Source: Minisyncoccia bacterium (GTDB lineage: Bacteria > Patescibacteriota > Minisyncoccia > Phycocordibacterales > UBA918). Taken from it: 64,000 nt of DNA. Positions 20,600 to 40,211 of this stretch are shown piece after piece (position 1 is the stretch's first letter; each line of letters starts with the position of its first letter). The position numbers and the translations under genes are program-made. Below the pieces are notes generated by a model, which saw nothing but the letters and a program-made list of their open reading frames with translations, did no database searches and was not told the origin of the DNA. The stretch spans positions 65,794 through 129,793 of the forward strand of contig JBGSYZ010000011.1 in NCBI GenBank assembly GCA_041750655.1. The letters are read 5' to 3'.

Positions 20600-21394
20600 C
20601 TAACCAGCCAAAATCGGCTGTTGTGGTTCACTCATAAAACAGCCGAGAATAAAGTTTTCATTAGACCGAAGGTTATATTGATACCCAGTCGCTGTCGTTT
20701 GTCCTCCACACGTATCTAATTCTGTATTTTCTGCAGGACCATAAATTGGATTACCATCAAATGCATAGCCGACCAACGTTGTCGCAGCATATCCTTTATA
20801 CAAAATTACATCGTTGTTGTGTATCAAACGACCGTCTTTTGTGACCCCAATATAACCACTAGTTAAACACGATGGTTCTGTGCGGAGAACTGGTCTCACC
20901 GGGAACTGCAGCAAAGTGACTGGTGGTTGCGCAACAGTACCAGAAGCTGTTTGTATAGCCGGCTTCTGTTCAACAACAACCCTCGCTCCTTCTCGCTCCA
21001 CTACACTCACTTCTTTGGGCCAATTAGCCGCTAATTGAGCTTCAAGAACAGTGGCATCACACCAAATTATTTCTCTATTTGTTGCATCATTATTTAAGTC
21101 TTCTTGGTCATTTTTCTCTTGATCAGTTTCTGCCACTACTGGCTCAGGTACGACAATCGTATCAACCCGCCTGGCCAACTCTTTTTTCATCATGGCCACA
21201 AATGAATCTCGACCTTCCTTTTGTGGGATAATTGCCGTTTCAGGAACCACTCCAGCACCCTCAGACACTGCCACATTAGCCGACAAGTTCATCGCTGGAG
21301 TTGAACCAGCGTGTAAATACATCTGGGCACTAGTAAAAAACAGCCCAATAAAAAGAAGTACAAAGGCAATAATTACATTACGGGTCCATCTCAT
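20600..21394 (-). CDS. hypothetical membrane-anchored/secreted protein (264 aa)
   Basis: N-terminal TM/signal. Gly/Tyr-rich C-terminal half. Confidence 0.35.
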   Translation of the reverse strand: MRWTRNVIIAFVLLFIGLFFTSAQMYLHAGSTPAMNLSANVAVSEGAGVVPETAIIPQKEGRDSFVAMMKKELARRVDTIVVPEPVVAETDQEKNDQEDLNNDATNREIIWCDATVLEAQLAANWPKEVSVVEREGARVVVEQKPAIQTASGTVAQPPVTLLQFPVRPVLRTEPSCLTSGYIGVTKDGRLIHNNDVILYKGYAATTLVGYAFDGNPIYGPAENTELDTCGGQTTATGYQYNLRSNENFILGCFMSEPQQPILAG

Positions 21395-21412
21395 AATTGG
21401 CTCTATTGTAGC

Positions 21413-21441
21413 AAAAAACCGGGCTAATCGCCCGGCTTTTT
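21413..21441. terminator. bidirectional intrinsic terminator (A-run, CCGGGC-TAATC-GCCCGG, T-run)
   Basis: Read directly. It lies at the left edge of the AT-rich island. Confidence 0.6.
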
Positions 21442-21458
21442 GCTACTAGGTGTTAAGA

Positions 21459-21551
21459 CTAGTAGTCGTCATCACTATAGTCATCGTCTTCTTCCACCTC
21501 TTCCTCGTCTTCAACTCCATCATCTGACATATCATCGAAAAGATACACCAT
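21459..21551 (-). CDS. unannotated 30-aa hyper-acidic peptide ending in Tyr: MVYLFDDMSDDGVEDEEEVEEDDDYSDDDY
   Basis: Translated by hand. Eighteen of the 30 residues are Asp/Glu and the C-terminal residue is Tyr. It is on the same strand as the ATP-grasp gene and 68 nt downstream of its stop. No strong SD is visible. Confidence 0.3.
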   Translation of the reverse strand: MVYLFDDMSDDGVEDEEEVEEDDDYSDDDY

Positions 21552-21619
21552 ACGAATTGTCTTATATTTATAAACTGTCCTAGTAGAGCTAGTCCAGTCC
21601 GTAAATTATATACCTGTTT

Positions 21620-22960
21620 TTAAGGTTGTGAAGGTGTCCTATTTATTTTTTTAACGGTCTTTTTGGTAGTTGAATTATTAGTATTTTTATTAGACATCTT
21701 AATATCTACCATTTTTTCTATTCGTCTAATGTCTGCCAAAAGTTTTGACCTCTCTTCATTATAGAGAAACAAATTAAAAATAGATTTACCACCATTTTTA
21801 GAATAATATGCTCGGTCACCAACTTTTTTATTTATGGTGATACTATGAAAAGACTCTACATCCTCTAATTTTTTTATGCCTTTCATTTCGGAAATAACCC
21901 CTTCACTTTCAGCAAACCACTTAATTGCACACGCGTAGCCTTTGCATTTTTTTGGAATGACTGGTTTCTTAGGAACCCGAACTAAGATATCATTTTTTAT
22001 ATGATCAATATCACAACTCAAACTATGTAATGTATGTCGAAATCCTCCCATGCGTGGTCCAACTTCAATAATTTTCCATTCATCATCAATCTTCATCAAC
22101 TCAGTGTGTGCAGTCACACTTCGAAGACCGAGCGCATGAATTGCTGTTTCAGCAGCTTTTTCAGCCATTTGCGCTGTTTCTTTTTTGAGCGCAGTGGGTG
22201 TCATTTGCTTATAATTATAAAAATCATCGTGACCTATATTTCTACCAGTCACTACTCGTACAAGTGGGCAATGATATACCTTTCCTCGACTATTGACATA
22301 GGAGTCAATCGAGTACATATCACCGTCCATATACTCTTCGGCAATAATTTTAGGTGTCTCCGTCCTGTTGCCACTTGCATACAAACCTTTAATCTTTCTA
22401 AACATTGTCTTAAGAGTTTTTTCAAGTTCTTCCTCATGATAACAAATAGATACTAACAGACTAGCACCTAAATTTGTTGGTTTTACTATCATTGGAAACT
22501 TAACTTTTTCGGCGACACGTTTCCTTTCTTTTTTTGAATTTTCTTTAACCCAAGTAAATCTGGGAGTATTTTTTTTGTCGAATAAATTAAAACGCTTTCT
22601 CATCTCATACTTATCAGTTGCCCAGCGTAACGACTCAGTTGAGGGTGTCCTTAGGTATGGAACATGTGGAATTATATCAGCAAAACGAGTTATATGATCA
22701 TCAGAGCCACACGTTATAGTCAATAGATTATCTTGATAAGGCATCAAGGCTGAAGCTATTTTCCACGGTTTTGAAAAATCAAACTCAAGTACAGTAGCGA
22801 TTTTATCGTATTTACTATTTCTTCTAATACGTGAGTCCCACAGGAGTATAGGCTTTATCGGAACCCCAATCTCAGCAGAAAGAACTTCCAGACTACGTAA
22901 AGTCCCTGGAGGCATCATCATTACAAAAGCTACAAGGTTTTTAATTTGTTTTTTACTCAT
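21620..22960 (-). CDS. ATP-grasp ligase (RimK / alpha-L-glutamate-ligase-related; TTL-like fold) with about 150-aa N-terminal extension
   Basis: ATP-grasp motifs FPMIVKPTNLGAS, IAEEYMDGDMYSIDSYV and HTELMKIDDEWKIIEVGPRMGG. The gene is visibly AT-rich compared with its flanks. Confidence 0.75.
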   Translation of the reverse strand: MSKKQIKNLVAFVMMMPPGTLRSLEVLSAEIGVPIKPILLWDSRIRRNSKYDKIATVLEFDFSKPWKIASALMPYQDNLLTITCGSDDHITRFADIIPHVPYLRTPSTESLRWATDKYEMRKRFNLFDKKNTPRFTWVKENSKKERKRVAEKVKFPMIVKPTNLGASLLVSICYHEEELEKTLKTMFRKIKGLYASGNRTETPKIIAEEYMDGDMYSIDSYVNSRGKVYHCPLVRVVTGRNIGHDDFYNYKQMTPTALKKETAQMAEKAAETAIHALGLRSVTAHTELMKIDDEWKIIEVGPRMGGFRHTLHSLSCDIDHIKNDILVRVPKKPVIPKKCKGYACAIKWFAESEGVISEMKGIKKLEDVESFHSITINKKVGDRAYYSKNGGKSIFNLFLYNEERSKLLADIRRIEKMVDIKMSNKNTNNSTTKKTVKKINRTPSQP

Positions 22961-23133
22961 ACGTGAGATGATAATATTGACCTAGAATTAAACAACATAC
23001 TACATAAACTAGACTTTATTGCAAACCAACACAATTATGCATAAAAACAATTCTTGACAGAATATTTGGAGAAATATTTATCAACTATTATGCTACACTA
23101 ACAAAATTCAATATAAATCGGTTACACACAGCT

Positions 23134-23874
23134 ATGATAATAAAGTATCCAAATAAAATTGCTTGGCGAAAGCGAATCATGGAGGGTGAAAATTTTTTTA
23201 AAGGGAAGAAACAAGTTCGCCTTACTAAACTTCTTGGTAACCTTGATGCATACACGATTACACATCGTTTTACAGTACCTGACGAAAAATTTTTTGAATG
23301 GTTTTGTCCTGAATATGAAAAAATGATTAGTGCTAAAGATAACGCGCTTAACATCAATGTTAAGAATTACAGTATTCAAGATGACAATAAACCAGCAAAA
23401 CGAATGGCTTTGGAAATTTATAATAATGACATTCTGATAGGTGCTACACTATTTTTCGATTGTCGTTTATCCGCGAACATTGCTTTTAAAACATACAAAA
23501 ATAAATGGAACATCGTTGGTCCGCAAATTGGACCGTCTCTGTATAGTGAGTATTTAATATACGAATGGGCTAAAGAGCATAATAAGAAATTTGTATCTCT
23601 TGGTGTAGATAGAAATCCATATGGTCCAAACGCAAGTATTGGCTTAGCTTCATACAAGTTGTCTGCTGGGTATTATCCCAAACAACCGAAAAAATGTGTT
23701 TTACTAGAAATGGACACTGACACCATTTTTTCTGATACTCTAATATTTAGTACAAATGACACTGAAAAAAAACAAATTTTGAAAGCTACACTTATTACTA
23801 CTAACCCAAAAAATTATGAACTTTTGTTAAAGCAGAGTAAAAATATTATCCAAATTGATACACTAGCATTATAG
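23134..23874 (+). CDS. hypothetical protein (246 aa), weak GNAT/FemAB-like resemblance
   Basis: It is divergent from the ATP-grasp gene. Its 3' end overlaps the convergent metallopeptidase gene by 6 nt. YEWAKEHNKKFVSLGVDRNPYG resembles a GNAT motif-A region. Speculative. Confidence 0.35.
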   Translation: MIIKYPNKIAWRKRIMEGENFFKGKKQVRLTKLLGNLDAYTITHRFTVPDEKFFEWFCPEYEKMISAKDNALNINVKNYSIQDDNKPAKRMALEIYNNDILIGATLFFDCRLSANIAFKTYKNKWNIVGPQIGPSLYSEYLIYEWAKEHNKKFVSLGVDRNPYGPNASIGLASYKLSAGYYPKQPKKCVLLEMDTDTIFSDTLIFSTNDTEKKQILKATLITTNPKNYELLLKQSKNIIQIDTLAL

Positions 23875-25179
23875 ATTTGGAATTATACCAAGCTCAATCA
23901 TCGCTGTGGTATGCAATTGATTTGTTGGATCAAATTTCCCCACTAATAAATACTTCAACCATTCATGATTATTTTTTAATAACGAGTGAACAGCAATGTT
24001 TCCATCACGATAACTACATTGTAATGTTAAAAATGCACCTGGGATTTTTCCATCAGTACCTTTGAACAAGTGCGCACAAACACCAAATGCAACGTTCTTT
24101 GCATTCACCTTTTCATTACTAAAGTAAATAGTATAAAAATCAAGCATAATTTCGAAAACCTCTCTGAAAGTTCTAGGTATGCCGCCCCGATCTAGTCCCA
24201 TAGCAATCCCAGCAGCAAAATAGGATTTGCCATTGGAATAATCATTCGCTCCCTTAACCAATTGTTCACGATATGTAGCAACGCCCTCTTCCCCTTTTAG
24301 ATACGCATGCAAACCCACTGACAAAAGCTTTAGTTTCGAGGATAGACCATTTTCATATCTCAAAATATGAGTCAACTCATGAGTAATTAAAGCATCAATA
24401 TTTCGACTCGTTAAAACACTTTCGGCTCTTCTTGAACTTAATGCTGTATCGTTTGGAATAATGACTCTTTTTGTGTTTGTTTTAACTACAAAATTTGATC
24501 GGCTCTTATGCCCATCAACTAGGCGCCATTGTGTCAAACCTAATTTTTCAAAAGCTTCATAAAAACGCTTTTTGATTTCATTTCTATCAGTCACCAAATT
24601 ACCTTCATCTGGGATCGAAGGTCTAATATTTAGATTATTAATAGTGCTAGCTGGTACTGTGTCAAAAATACTTCTTAGCCTGTAATATGCTTCTTTATTT
24701 CGTATTGAAAGTGGCGCAATAGTGAGTCTTTCAGCTAAGACAGTACATGAATGATAAAAGGTGTCTGGTTTTATTTTACCAAAGACTTCATTTGATAACT
24801 CTGTGAACGATTCAGCATACTTTTGTTTATCATTCTCCGCACTTATAAGTAACGCTGAGTTTCTCACTAAATTTATCAGCATTACTTTTTCGTCAATCTT
24901 TTTAAAGTATAAATTTTTAACAATTGGAATCGTATCTGAGCAGGATGCAATGTCTGATCTAAGTTGCTCTAATGTATCTAATTTGTATGAAAAATTACTG
25001 TCCTCAATATTATGGTATTTAAAATCCGGACCGACGCCCGTCCCATTTAAAAAGGCTTCTCTTGTAGAGTTATAATCATACAAAGTGAAGCGCGCAGGAA
25101 CACCGTCCTGAATTTTATGCAAACGCTCAAACCATTTTTCATCAAACGCTTCAGATGGTGTTTGGTTTGTTAGATTCAC
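23869..25179 (-). CDS. DUF1704 / MATCAP-like putative zinc metallopeptidase (QEGLA-motif family)
   Basis: HExxH in ITHELTHIL. A Glu-containing GEEGVA (QEGLA-like) motif lies about 25 aa downstream, consistent with the third zinc ligand of a gluzincin. Members of this family are typically paired with RimK-like ATP-grasp genes. Confidence 0.6.
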   Translation of the reverse strand: MNLTNQTPSEAFDEKWFERLHKIQDGVPARFTLYDYNSTREAFLNGTGVGPDFKYHNIEDSNFSYKLDTLEQLRSDIASCSDTIPIVKNLYFKKIDEKVMLINLVRNSALLISAENDKQKYAESFTELSNEVFGKIKPDTFYHSCTVLAERLTIAPLSIRNKEAYYRLRSIFDTVPASTINNLNIRPSIPDEGNLVTDRNEIKKRFYEAFEKLGLTQWRLVDGHKSRSNFVVKTNTKRVIIPNDTALSSRRAESVLTSRNIDALITHELTHILRYENGLSSKLKLLSVGLHAYLKGEEGVATYREQLVKGANDYSNGKSYFAAGIAMGLDRGGIPRTFREVFEIMLDFYTIYFSNEKVNAKNVAFGVCAHLFKGTDGKIPGAFLTLQCSYRDGNIAVHSLLKNNHEWLKYLLVGKFDPTNQLHTTAMIELGIIPNL

Positions 25180-25181
25180 AA

Positions 25182-25856
25182 TTAAAAACTAAATTCAACA
25201 TCGGTAGCAGCAGTGGCCTCTACCTCATCTGGTGCTGTTACGCCTATAGCGACTTCAATTTGTTTCTTAAAATCATCAAAGGTAGTAATTTCTATTTTTT
25301 CACCATTTAAGTAAAATGTTGGGGTGGCACTAATTTTAAGAACTCGTCCTTCGCGCATATCATTTTGAACCGCCTCCCGTACGACTGATGAATTAACATC
25401 ACGGTTAAATTTGTCTACATCAAGACCCAGCTCTTCAGCATAGCTGGAAAATAGATTTTTAGGATTGATATTTTGACTCCAATTTTTTTGACGTTCAAAT
25501 AGAATATCGTGCATTTCCCAAAACTTTCCTTGTACTCCAGCCGCTTCAGCTACACGAGCGGCTAATTCTGCGCTAGGGTGAATTGAGATAAGCGGAAAAT
25601 GATGGTACTCAAATCGAATCTGATCCCCATACTCATCAATAATATTGCTAACCACCGGTTCAAACTGCCCACATGCCGGACACTGAAAATCACTGTGTTC
25701 TGATAACACTACAGTTGCTTCAGGATTGCCCTTTACTTTTTCTTGTAGAGTGATGACTTCATCTGTTCCTCCACCTTTCACATTTGAATACACTAAAGCC
25801 CCGCCCAGCAGAACAATAAAAGAAACAGCAATAATAACCAGTGATGATTTTTCCAT
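25182..25856 (-). CDS. DsbA-family thiol:disulfide oxidoreductase (thioredoxin fold), membrane-anchored
   Basis: CxxC active site in FQCPACGQF. Thioredoxin-like layout with an N-terminal TM helix. Confidence 0.7.
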   Translation of the reverse strand: MEKSSLVIIAVSFIVLLGGALVYSNVKGGGTDEVITLQEKVKGNPEATVVLSEHSDFQCPACGQFEPVVSNIIDEYGDQIRFEYHHFPLISIHPSAELAARVAEAAGVQGKFWEMHDILFERQKNWSQNINPKNLFSSYAEELGLDVDKFNRDVNSSVVREAVQNDMREGRVLKISATPTFYLNGEKIEITTFDDFKKQIEVAIGVTAPDEVEATAATDVEFSF

Positions 25857-39695: not shown

Positions 39696-40211
39696 TTAAA
39701 CCTTTTTAGCAGCTTTTTTCGTCGTCTTCTTAGTAGTTTTAGTAGCCGTCTTTTTTGCAGCTTTCTTAGTGGCCTTTTTTGTAGCCTTCTGAGCTGGTTT
39801 CTTGGCAGCTTTTTTAACAGCCTTTGCTACTGCTCCAGCGGCCATTTTCTTACCTTTCTTTTCAATCTCTCCCCAGTATTCTTTCATTTCTTTTTTGAAA
39901 GCAGACACATCACCTTTGGAGGCATCCTTCATAGAGGCGTACGTTGCAGCTACCCCTTCTATAAGTTGTTCATACTCAGCCTTACTCATGTGTTGTGCTT
40001 TTTCCATAGTGCTGAGTACCTCGGCTTTAGCACTAAGCATCCAGCTTTTAACTTTCTTACGATTCTTAGCGGCATCCTTACTTCCATAAAGAAAGTACGT
40101 TCCAGCAGCGGCCACTGCGGCGGCAGTAAGACCAACGGCGATTTCTACCTTCTGAGTTGGTGATAATGTTTGCTTTGTTTTTTTTGTTGCCATACAGTAA
40201 TTATGATTCAT
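39696..40211 (-). CDS. histone-H1-like Lys/Ala-rich DNA-binding protein (putative nucleoid protein)
   Basis: The C-terminal third is KKAAKKPAQKATKKATKKAAKKTATKTTKKTTKKAAKKV. The true start may be the internal MATKK. Confidence 0.5.
   Translation of the reverse strand: MNHNYCMATKKTKQTLSPTQKVEIAVGLTAAAVAAAGTYFLYGSKDAAKNRKKVKSWMLSAKAEVLSTMEKAQHMSKAEYEQLIEGVAATYASMKDASKGDVSAFKKEMKEYWGEIEKKGKKMAAGAVAKAVKKAAKKPAQKATKKATKKAAKKTATKTTKKTTKKAAKKV

Follow-up and report, generated by a model that had tools for sequence, protein, structure and literature searches.

In the tubulin tyrosination cycle, TTL is paired with MATCAP/TMCP or vasohibin, and the MATCAP/TMCP enzymes, which carry an unusual HExxxH motif, depend on the Glu-Tyr-COOH end of alpha-tubulin (PMC10499314). 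A ligase/protease pair, RimK/RimB, attaches Glu to the acidic C terminus of RpsF and takes it off again (PMC11957051; PMC10375531), and in the 3-thiaglutamate scaffold pathway a residue is joined to the C terminus of a peptide and later cleaved off, by which the scaffold is regenerated (10.1101/338681; PMC9016710). Side chains of peptidoglycan are added either by Fem transferases, which have a GNAT fold and use aminoacyl-tRNA, or by ATP-grasp ligases, such as D-aspartate ligase (PMC2655667). Here, we analyzed a block of three enzyme genes in a 64,000-nucleotide stretch of a Minisyncoccia bacterium genome (GCA_041750655.1, contig JBGSYZ010000011.1, positions 65,794 to 129,793; the whole stretch is here called the window). 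The block combines a MATCAP-family peptidase, an ATP-grasp ligase, and a protein resembling Fem and ATE1 transferases with a short gene for a strongly acidic peptide.

The block spans positions 21413 to 25181 of the window, and the three open reading frames (ORFs) that the original prediction had reported were found in it at the same coordinates. They encode an ATP-grasp ligase of 446 amino acids (21620..22960, minus strand), a 246-amino-acid protein with a GNAT fold of the Fem/ATE1/Lys-PG-synthase type (23134..23874, plus strand), and a MATCAP-family (PF08014) gluzincin metallopeptidase of 436 amino acids with a GTG start (23869..25179, minus strand). An acidic mini-gene of 30 codons (21459..21551, minus strand), which that prediction had missed, lies between the stop codon of the ligase gene and an intrinsic terminator. 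We tentatively read the block, with a probability of about 0.4, as one version of a variable cassette for the ligation and trimming of peptide ends that occupies a fixed slot in Kaiserbacteria-like Patescibacteria, with the mini-peptide as the acceptor in this lineage. The related loci used for comparison (given as L numbers) were gathered via the peptidase, the Fem-like protein, and the ligase and were then annotated with profiles.

The peptidase matched Pfam family PF08014 with 37.0 bits against a cutoff of 27 (E = 2.6e-9), in an alignment that covers the C-terminal half of the model only (163-335 of 365). All 34 homologues found in the word-indexed database carry PF08014, and those with a named source come from metagenome-assembled genomes of Patescibacteria/Parcubacteria. 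While a search of PDB sequences with the single 436-amino-acid protein gave no match, a profile built from 29 homologues and run against all PDB sequences matched human MATCAP alone (7z5g, 7z5h, and 7z6s; E = 3.8e-5). The alignment of the profile with human MATCAP covers the HEIGTH motif, EEG(L/V)A, and the F.KD.vY..G block, and the overall fold of the peptidase is like that of solved MATCAP. CPR-C4, a conserved cysteine protease of Patescibacteria, is structurally similar to vasohibins, the other family of tubulin detyrosinases (PMC9108980); since MATCAP-like genes are present as well, relatives of both detyrosinase families occur in Patescibacteria.

The active-site motifs of the peptidase are HELTH at residues 267-271 and GEEGVA at 296-301, and H267, E268, H271, G296, E297, E298, G299, and A301 are invariant in the 29 homologues. 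The GEEGVA block, with the Glu that is the third metal ligand, aligns to EEGLA of human MATCAP. HExxxH occurs in 26 of the 29 aligned family members, whereas the window protein has the shorter HExxH (HELTH, codons at 24367-24381 on the minus strand), owing to a one-residue deletion common to its clade (P0002, L006, L008, and L010). Both His residues and the catalytic Glu are kept, so that HExxH is a variant of the motif rather than a loss of the metal site. The original prediction had assigned the protein to the DUF1704/QEGLA family. Its PF08014/MATCAP part holds, together with the intact metal site, but the score with the proteobacterial TIGR02421 "QEGLA" equivalog model (37.8 bits) stays well below the cutoff of 338.65 bits, and relative to TIGR02421 the peptidase represents a distinct Patescibacteria subfamily. 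A signal peptide was not found in the protein, and we regard it, judging from its sequence, as a predicted cytoplasmic carboxypeptidase. Elsewhere in the window, an ORF of 171 amino acids (39696-40211, minus strand) matched the MATCAP profile weakly (E = 2.8e-4) and belongs to no Pfam family; this match is probably noise.

For the ligase, the best Pfam match was PF13535 ATP-grasp_4 (68.9 bits, cutoff 27, with 2-158 of the 160 model positions covered), followed by Dala_Dala_lig_C. Its NCBIfam matches PRK07206, PRK02186, and BacD are all far under their cutoffs (BacD, 43 versus 850 bits; likewise DdaF, 22.6 versus 840). The model LAL_C2, for the second C-terminal domain of LALs, scored 14.4 bits with a cutoff of 29.4. 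The nearest solved structures are the L-amino-acid ligases (LALs) 3vot (E = 6e-9) and BacD/3vmm (E = 8e-8), and then D-Ala-D-Ala ligases. RimK (PF08443 and TIGR00768) and TTL (PF03133) are absent from the Pfam matches at E ≤ 1 and from the top NCBIfam matches, and a search of the window with true RimK proteins of related loci gave no match. The ligase had been predicted to be RimK/TTL-like, a description to be given up if it grouped with D-Ala-D-Ala ligases instead; as its matches are ATP-grasp_4, Ddl, and L-amino-acid ligases, we give it up here and describe the protein as a putative L-amino-acid-ligase/Ddl-like ATP-grasp_4 enzyme. The family to which it belongs is large, with more than 1,459 proteins at E < 1e-30, and among the matches listed most are 62-68% identical to the window protein. 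It differs from the characterized L-amino-acid ligases (BacD/YwfE and BL00235), its best sequence matches, in its score under the BacD cutoff and its basic, Lys-rich tail and in being a core syntenic gene of Patescibacteria outside any antibiotic cluster.

The window holds only one ligase of this kind in its 64 kb, and across genomes the gene is a fixed, vertically inherited part of the backbone in this Patescibacteria lineage. The ligase is strongly basic, with an isoelectric point (pI) of 9.6 and a net charge of +27, and in the four lineages checked pI values lie at 9.4-9.7 and net charges at +17 to +33. A Lys-rich C-terminal tail of 20-35 residues is seen in the window protein (21620-21700, minus strand) and in L006 (9300-9380), L008 (3440-3529), and L009 (3080-3139), and is absent from the L001 and L004 orthologues.

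The protein of 246 amino acids, listed as unknown in the original prediction, could be given a GNAT fold of the Fem/ATE1 type by fold comparison. A single-sequence search gave no match in Pfam, NCBIfam, or PDB sequences. An exhaustive profile search collected 332 cluster representatives, nearly all of about 250 amino acids. Among 66 diverse family members, Acetyltransf_6 was matched by four (best 2.4e-6) and FemAB_like by four (best 0.0045), with no other recurrent family. The fold is closest to aminoacyl-tRNA-dependent transferases (FemX, Lys-PG synthase, ATE1, and Sbb17). The top match is Sbb17, a natural-product enzyme, and FemX (4ii9 and 6snr) and FemA are among the best, with 154-168 residues aligned to FemX/FemA chains of 337-402 residues. 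This makes the protein a candidate aminoacyl-tRNA-dependent aminoacyl transferase, in which aminoacyl-tRNA would be the donor. In one remote family member (P0297), a Fem-like domain is fused to an ATP-grasp half. We considered this fusion as a link to the window ligase and rejected it, as its ATP-grasp half is of the unrelated PRK06524-like type; it backs only a general partnership of Fem-like and ATP-grasp domains.

The mini-gene encodes MVYLFDDMSDDGVEDEEEVEEDDDYSDDDY, a peptide that opens with an MVYLF head, continues as a poly-Asp/Glu body, and ends in Asp-Tyr, in which 17 of 30 residues (57%) are Asp or Glu. Among the 934 ORFs of at least 20 amino acids in the window, the next most acidic reaches 24% Asp plus Glu, and none of 100 dinucleotide shuffles of the window gave an ORF of at least 25 amino acids with at least 50% of these residues. 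An orthologue, MVYLFDDMSDDEEVEDDDVDTSDDDDMDDSDGDY, lies in the same position in L009, the closest relative available (ATP-grasp identity, 86% by BLASTP and 84% after MAFFT alignment). In the DNA alignment of the two loci, both changes in the N-terminal eleven codons are synonymous, GA is held at codon positions 1 and 2 of the acidic tract while position 3 varies, and the difference in length is a 12-nucleotide in-frame indel. The Tyr codon with its stop, the terminator, and TATATAAT upstream are kept between window and L009. Because it is a compositional outlier with a coding signature against L009 and a restricted distribution, the mini-ORF is a real, fast-evolving gene restricted to one lineage. 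The gene lies in the ligase transcription unit, ahead of the terminator, and we regard its product as a candidate substrate or scaffold. The predicted Asp-Tyr-COOH end of this product mirrors the Glu-Tyr-COOH end of tubulin.

TATATAAT is part of the best sigma-70-like promoter match in the region (TTCACA-16-TATAAT, 21632..21605 on the minus strand; 11/12, a consensus match only), which overlaps the end of the ATP-grasp gene upstream of the mini-ORF. A strain variant of L009 (L073), which differs from it at 6 of 3,367 positions, was added by an exact-sequence cluster look-up after the scan of 65 related loci for acidic mini-ORFs. Four of the six differences fall within 9 nucleotides of the mini-ORF (L009, 3246-3254) and change MSDD to RYEY in frame; for this cluster there are two readings, a hot spot of diversification and an assembly or multi-nucleotide artifact. 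The composition of the peptide, with no Lys or Thr and two Ser only, led us to reject a graspetide-type cluster for a ribosomally synthesized and posttranslationally modified peptide, as did the ligase, which is not RimK-like.

Comparison of the related loci revealed a shared backbone in the order DsbA, slot, LAL-type ATP-grasp, YHYH, PolB-exo, GH1, and EamA. In the most widely sampled genomes (L066-L072), this slot is filled by one or two RimK-family ligases; L012, L013, and L015-L017 have one or two Fem-like genes there, and L011 has a RimK with two Fem-like genes. MATCAP together with Fem-like genes fills it in the window and in L001, L004/5, L006, L008, L009, L007+L010, and L029. L031-L033 have neither the Fem-like gene nor the LAL-type ligase; a MATCAP, two CphA-like ATP-grasps, and a second MATCAP take their place (L032, 6287-12505). 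Fem-like and ATP-grasp genes are adjacent and divergent in every locus that shows both. On neighbor-joining trees (no support values), slot contents are interleaved over the ligase tree, and the DsbA-slot copies of the peptidase group together. Cassettes have repeatedly been exchanged in the slot, and its contents turn over from lineage to lineage. Tandem duplicates of the Fem-like gene were observed in L004 (7346-8826), L011 (6248-7750), L013 (6968-8513), and L022 (1182-2329), an arrangement that would make sense if the copies each add a different residue.

ATP-grasp ligases of four types recur beside the MATCAP-like genes of Patescibacteria. Unbiased clustering of their neighbors placed two ATP-grasp families at the top, with 11 loci each: a true RimK (TIGR00768, 172.9 bits against a cutoff of 143.4) and a TIGR02291-like ligase fused to a retropepsin-like domain. 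The third recurrent neighbor is a cyanophycin-synthetase (CphA)/GshB-like ATP-grasp, which also matches the model TIGR03103 for N-acetylglutaminylglutamine amide (NAGGN) synthetase. Of 13 non-redundant MATCAP-like loci flanked by 4 kb or more on either side, 7 have an ATP-grasp within 5 kb. These neighborhoods and the acidic, Tyr-ended mini-gene lend circumstantial support to the functional link between ligase and peptidase that had been proposed from the window, where the two genes share no operon. A search of the literature on DUF1704, QEGLA, and TIGR02421 yielded no experimental work on bacterial MATCAP/DUF1704 proteins, DUF1704 being mentioned once in an unrelated context and QEGLA and TIGR02421 nowhere in the papers covered, and a search on MATCAP together with ATP-grasp found nothing relevant; an earlier mention of a DUF1704/ATP-grasp link may exist. 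A survey of amidoligases published by Iyer and colleagues in 2009 is said to have described neighborhoods of this kind.

Two further features recur beside MATCAP-like genes. An 860-amino-acid fusion of a TIGR02291-like ATP-grasp, a retropepsin-like (RimB/RloA-type) domain, and a PRK06524-like C-terminal region (L045, 6350-8932, minus strand; also L026, L041, and L058) adjoins RimK and MATCAP-like genes and looks like a Rim/Rlo-like module in Patescibacteria. Beside MATCAP-like genes that lack a ligase, a protein of 112-124 amino acids with the motif ...GGTTEYSY.R.G.Y... recurs (L002, 7518-7856; L003, 4656-4994; L018; L037, 3068-3442; L042).

In the reading that we favor, with its presumed substrates and order of reactions, the basic L-amino-acid-ligase-like ATP-grasp would activate a carboxylate as an acyl-phosphate and ligate an amino acid to it. 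Such activation, followed by ligation of an amine, is the standard chemistry of ATP-grasp enzymes. The Fem/ATE1-like GNAT protein would move an aminoacyl group from aminoacyl-tRNA onto a free amine of the same acceptor, and the MATCAP-family enzyme, as a Zn/Mn/Co carboxypeptidase, would cut the C-terminal residue off an acidic tail, as MATCAP does on the ...EEY end of alpha-tubulin. Most plausibly, the acceptor in this lineage would be the 30-amino-acid peptide encoded directly after the ligase gene, which could be the edited product itself or a reusable scaffold that releases an added residue. All proteins of the cassette are predicted to be cytoplasmic, and all three enzymes are basic, in keeping with an acidic acceptor. 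We favor building and trimming of an acidic peptide end because the pairing of MATCAP with RimK parallels RimK/RimB and because a peptide end of the MATCAP type is encoded in the ligase unit.

Several observations weigh against this reading. The enzyme trio is split over three transcription units on alternating strands (DsbA to peptidase; the Fem-like gene alone; ATP-grasp to mini-ORF) and does not form a single operon. Most relatives carry the ATP-grasp without the peptidase (L011-L017 and L066-L072), so that the primary role of the ligase does not need MATCAP, and at 6 of the 13 well-flanked MATCAP-like loci an ATP-grasp is missing from the vicinity. Because the division into four ligase types was made with the neighbors in view, the enrichment is suggestive rather than a formal test. 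To our knowledge, no LAL-type ATP-grasp acts on a protein C terminus. Moreover, the mini-gene is limited to two lineages (the window; L009/L073). It was not found downstream of the ligase in L001, L004, L006, L007, or L008, all of which have the enzyme trio, and the scan of the 65 related loci (about 0.6 Mb) found no acidic mini-ORF besides the L009 orthologue. The mini-peptide can therefore serve as the general substrate only if the trio genomes without a mini-gene at this site encode it at another position.

The window resembles the tubulin cycle in that its peptidase is a MATCAP member by Pfam, profile, and fold, in that an ATP-grasp ligase is encoded alongside, and in that the mini-gene encodes an acidic tail ending in an acidic residue followed by Tyr-COOH, as the substrate of MATCAP does (PMC10499314). 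It differs in a ligase that is neither TTL- nor RimK-like, in the HExxH of its clade where MATCAP has HExxxH, in the added Fem-like transferase, and in its candidate substrate, a free 30-amino-acid peptide rather than the tail of a folded protein. The likeness to RimK/RimB and to the RloABC operon lies in the relatives, whose slot holds RimK-family ligases, and in the MATCAP-like genes elsewhere that adjoin RimK and the retropepsin-fused TIGR02291-like ligase; the window itself has neither RimK nor a retropepsin, and its protease is a gluzincin and not an aspartic protease. With the scaffold-peptide ("pearlin") pathways, the locus shares an analogous parts list of peptide, ligase, and protease for the C-terminal residue. 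There, however, the ligase is a LanB-like PEARL and not an ATP-grasp, and the window has no tailoring enzymes and a far more acidic peptide.

A bolder extension, which we consider unlikely, is that Patescibacteria have a prokaryotic counterpart of the tubulin-tail code, in which a free, ribosomally made, poly-acidic, Tyr-ended peptide would in cycles be trimmed by MATCAP and re-extended by the ATP-grasp and/or the Fem-like transferase, and in which the RimK- and CphA-like ligases of sister genomes would make a non-ribosomal poly-Glu or poly-Asp equivalent. The peptide might then serve as a signaling or regulatory molecule or as a reusable scaffold for a product derived from amino acids. If this is true, MATCAP would have an ancestral function in bacteria, and scaffold-peptide pathways would gain a new class in which ATP-grasp enzymes replace PEARLs. 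More generally, the locus could reveal the ancestral activity of the family of tubulin-detyrosinating enzymes, show whether a single peptide is worked on jointly by ligases that depend on aminoacyl-tRNA and on ATP, and explain why a ligase slot is conserved yet variable in the reduced genomes of Patescibacteria.

The strongest rival explanation, which strikes us as rather doubtful, is the tailoring of a cell-envelope precursor. The Fem-like protein and the ATP-grasp would build a side chain or cross-bridge on the peptidoglycan stem peptide (or on another envelope peptide), with the MATCAP-like enzyme as an accessory carboxypeptidase, and the swap between RimK-type and Fem-type genes in the slot would be lineage-specific cross-bridge chemistry. 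Such side chains are known to be added by two routes, via Fem transferases or ATP-grasp ligases, which combine or alternate for one acceptor (PMC2655667), and in the related loci Fem-like genes and RimK-type ligases likewise alternate in one slot beside a constant ATP-grasp. The structural matches to FemX and FemA and the two sole recurrent Pfam matches of the family fit this explanation, as do the envelope-related flanks (DsbA and the membrane-anchored YHYH protein) and the high identity of the ligase across many genomes among the matches listed, as for a core function. However, mur, ddl, and racemase genes were not found in the neighborhood, so that a cell-wall gene context is missing, and the Fem-like protein is shorter than FemX/FemA, aligns with only part of them, and itself has no Pfam FemAB match. 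Protein tails are the only substrates known for the MATCAP family, and a MATCAP-type peptidase with an acidic peptide has no counterpart in the Fem and D-Asp ligase systems. Tailoring of the envelope would leave unexplained both the acidic mini-gene beside a strongly basic ligase and the link of MATCAP to ligases at other loci. If it is right, the locus marks lineage-specific cell-wall chemistry in bacteria that are not culturable alone.

It is also conceivable, although quite unlikely in our view, that the ligase (with or without the Fem-like gene) and MATCAP are unrelated neighbors, that the slot beside DsbA merely tolerates insertions, and that the mini-ORF encodes an independent acidic regulator or mimic. 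The three separate transcription units, the peptidase gene running in the direction of DsbA and not of the ligases, the promoter-like site of the mini-ORF itself, the many MATCAP-like genes that stand alone, and the presence or absence of the peptidase beside an unchanged ATP-grasp over a scattered phylogeny would all agree with this. Mere proximity does not readily account for four unrelated ATP-grasp types recurring beside MATCAP-like genes in differing contexts, or for L031-L033, where MATCAP and CphA-like ligases jointly replace the usual content of the slot. It would also make a coincidence of a MATCAP-type peptide end that lies 2.3 kb from the sole MATCAP homologue in 64 kb, with no other such acidic ORF in the window or in the related loci apart from the L009 orthologue. 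A pathway for a small-molecule peptide, in which the ligase and the GNAT protein would make a free di- or oligopeptide (an osmolyte or antibiotic) that the peptidase recycles or matures, appears improbable. The nearest characterized relatives of the ligase (3vot, BacD, and DdaF) and the natural-product enzyme Sbb17 as top fold match point in this direction, as does the TIGR03103 match of the CphA-like neighbor at other loci. Analogies would be the bacilysin-type L-amino-acid ligases and the synthesis of NAGGN, which involves a trio of GNAT protein, ATP-grasp, and peptidase. Yet the transporter, tailoring, and resistance genes typical of metabolite clusters are absent, the ligase is far under every equivalog cutoff, and its very wide and well-conserved distribution in reduced genomes speaks against a secondary metabolite.

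With regard to its composition, the block was confirmed to be AT-rich, as claimed before. Its GC content is 0.346, compared to 0.433 ± 0.015 in windows of the same size elsewhere in the 64 kb (z = -5.9), a dip of 8-9 points below the rest, and it is essentially the lowest-GC stretch of its size in the window. The original prediction had added that the block may have been acquired horizontally, which the comparison with relatives does not support: even where the peptidase of a relative is no more than 32-38% identical, the genes still run in the order DsbA - MATCAP - Fem-like - ATP-grasp - YHYH - PolB-exo - GH1. That the slot differs in content among lineages would, like the GC dip, suit a recently acquired genomic island, mobile element, or defense system. 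However, low GC is also a feature of the backbone ligase (0.353), which is inherited vertically, and it recurs among the orthologous genes in L004 and L006; on the tree, the MATCAP proteins of the DsbA slot form a group, and the window clade has the derived HExxH deletion in common. No mobility genes were called, no integrase, tRNA, or repeat boundary was found among the called genes, and PADLOC and PHROGs gave no matches, on which grounds a defense-system or phage origin was rejected as well. Synteny and the shared low GC led us to reject a recent island of horizontally transferred genes, and the island explanation, already largely refuted, is one to which we attach hardly any credence.

At its right-hand edge, the block abuts a DsbA-like thioredoxin-fold gene with a CPAC motif (25182..25856, minus strand), as the original prediction had stated. 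This gene is the right-hand backbone marker of the slot, and its orthologues in related loci carry PF13462/PF01323. It directly adjoins the peptidase ORF upstream on the same strand, and the two genes probably share one transcript. Between the divergent ATP-grasp and Fem-like genes lies an intergenic region of 173 nucleotides (22961..23133), which presumably holds the promoters for both. The left-hand backbone marker is a gene for a YHYH-like membrane-anchored protein (20600..21394, minus strand; weak PF14240 match).

The terminator at the left-hand edge (21408..21446, minus strand) is a hairpin with a 17-bp stem in which an A-tract pairs with a U-tract; its minus-strand RNA reads GUAGCAAAAAGCCGGGC / GAUUA / GCCCGGUUUUUUGCUAC. 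Folding of 71 nucleotides gave a dG of -36.9 kcal/mol (z = -9.1 versus shuffles). The stem is perfect in the minus-strand RNA only, as one G-U pair there becomes an A-C mismatch on the plus strand. The hairpin had been described as a bidirectional terminator, and it is indeed real, strong, and formally bidirectional; because no plus-strand gene runs into it, it works in the minus direction, where it ends the ATP-grasp/mini-ORF transcript. It is kept in L009 and L073. The layout of mini-ORF, terminator, and next gene led us to consider a leader-peptide attenuator, which was rejected, as the terminator folds independently with no competing antiterminator and the downstream genes are not for Asp/Glu biosynthesis. 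The YHYH gene starts about 13 nucleotides beyond the hairpin, which leaves no room for a promoter (21394-21446, minus strand), and in relatives without the mini-ORF it directly follows the ligase gene. Its expression in the window would need read-through, or else YHYH would be uncoupled from the ligase here.

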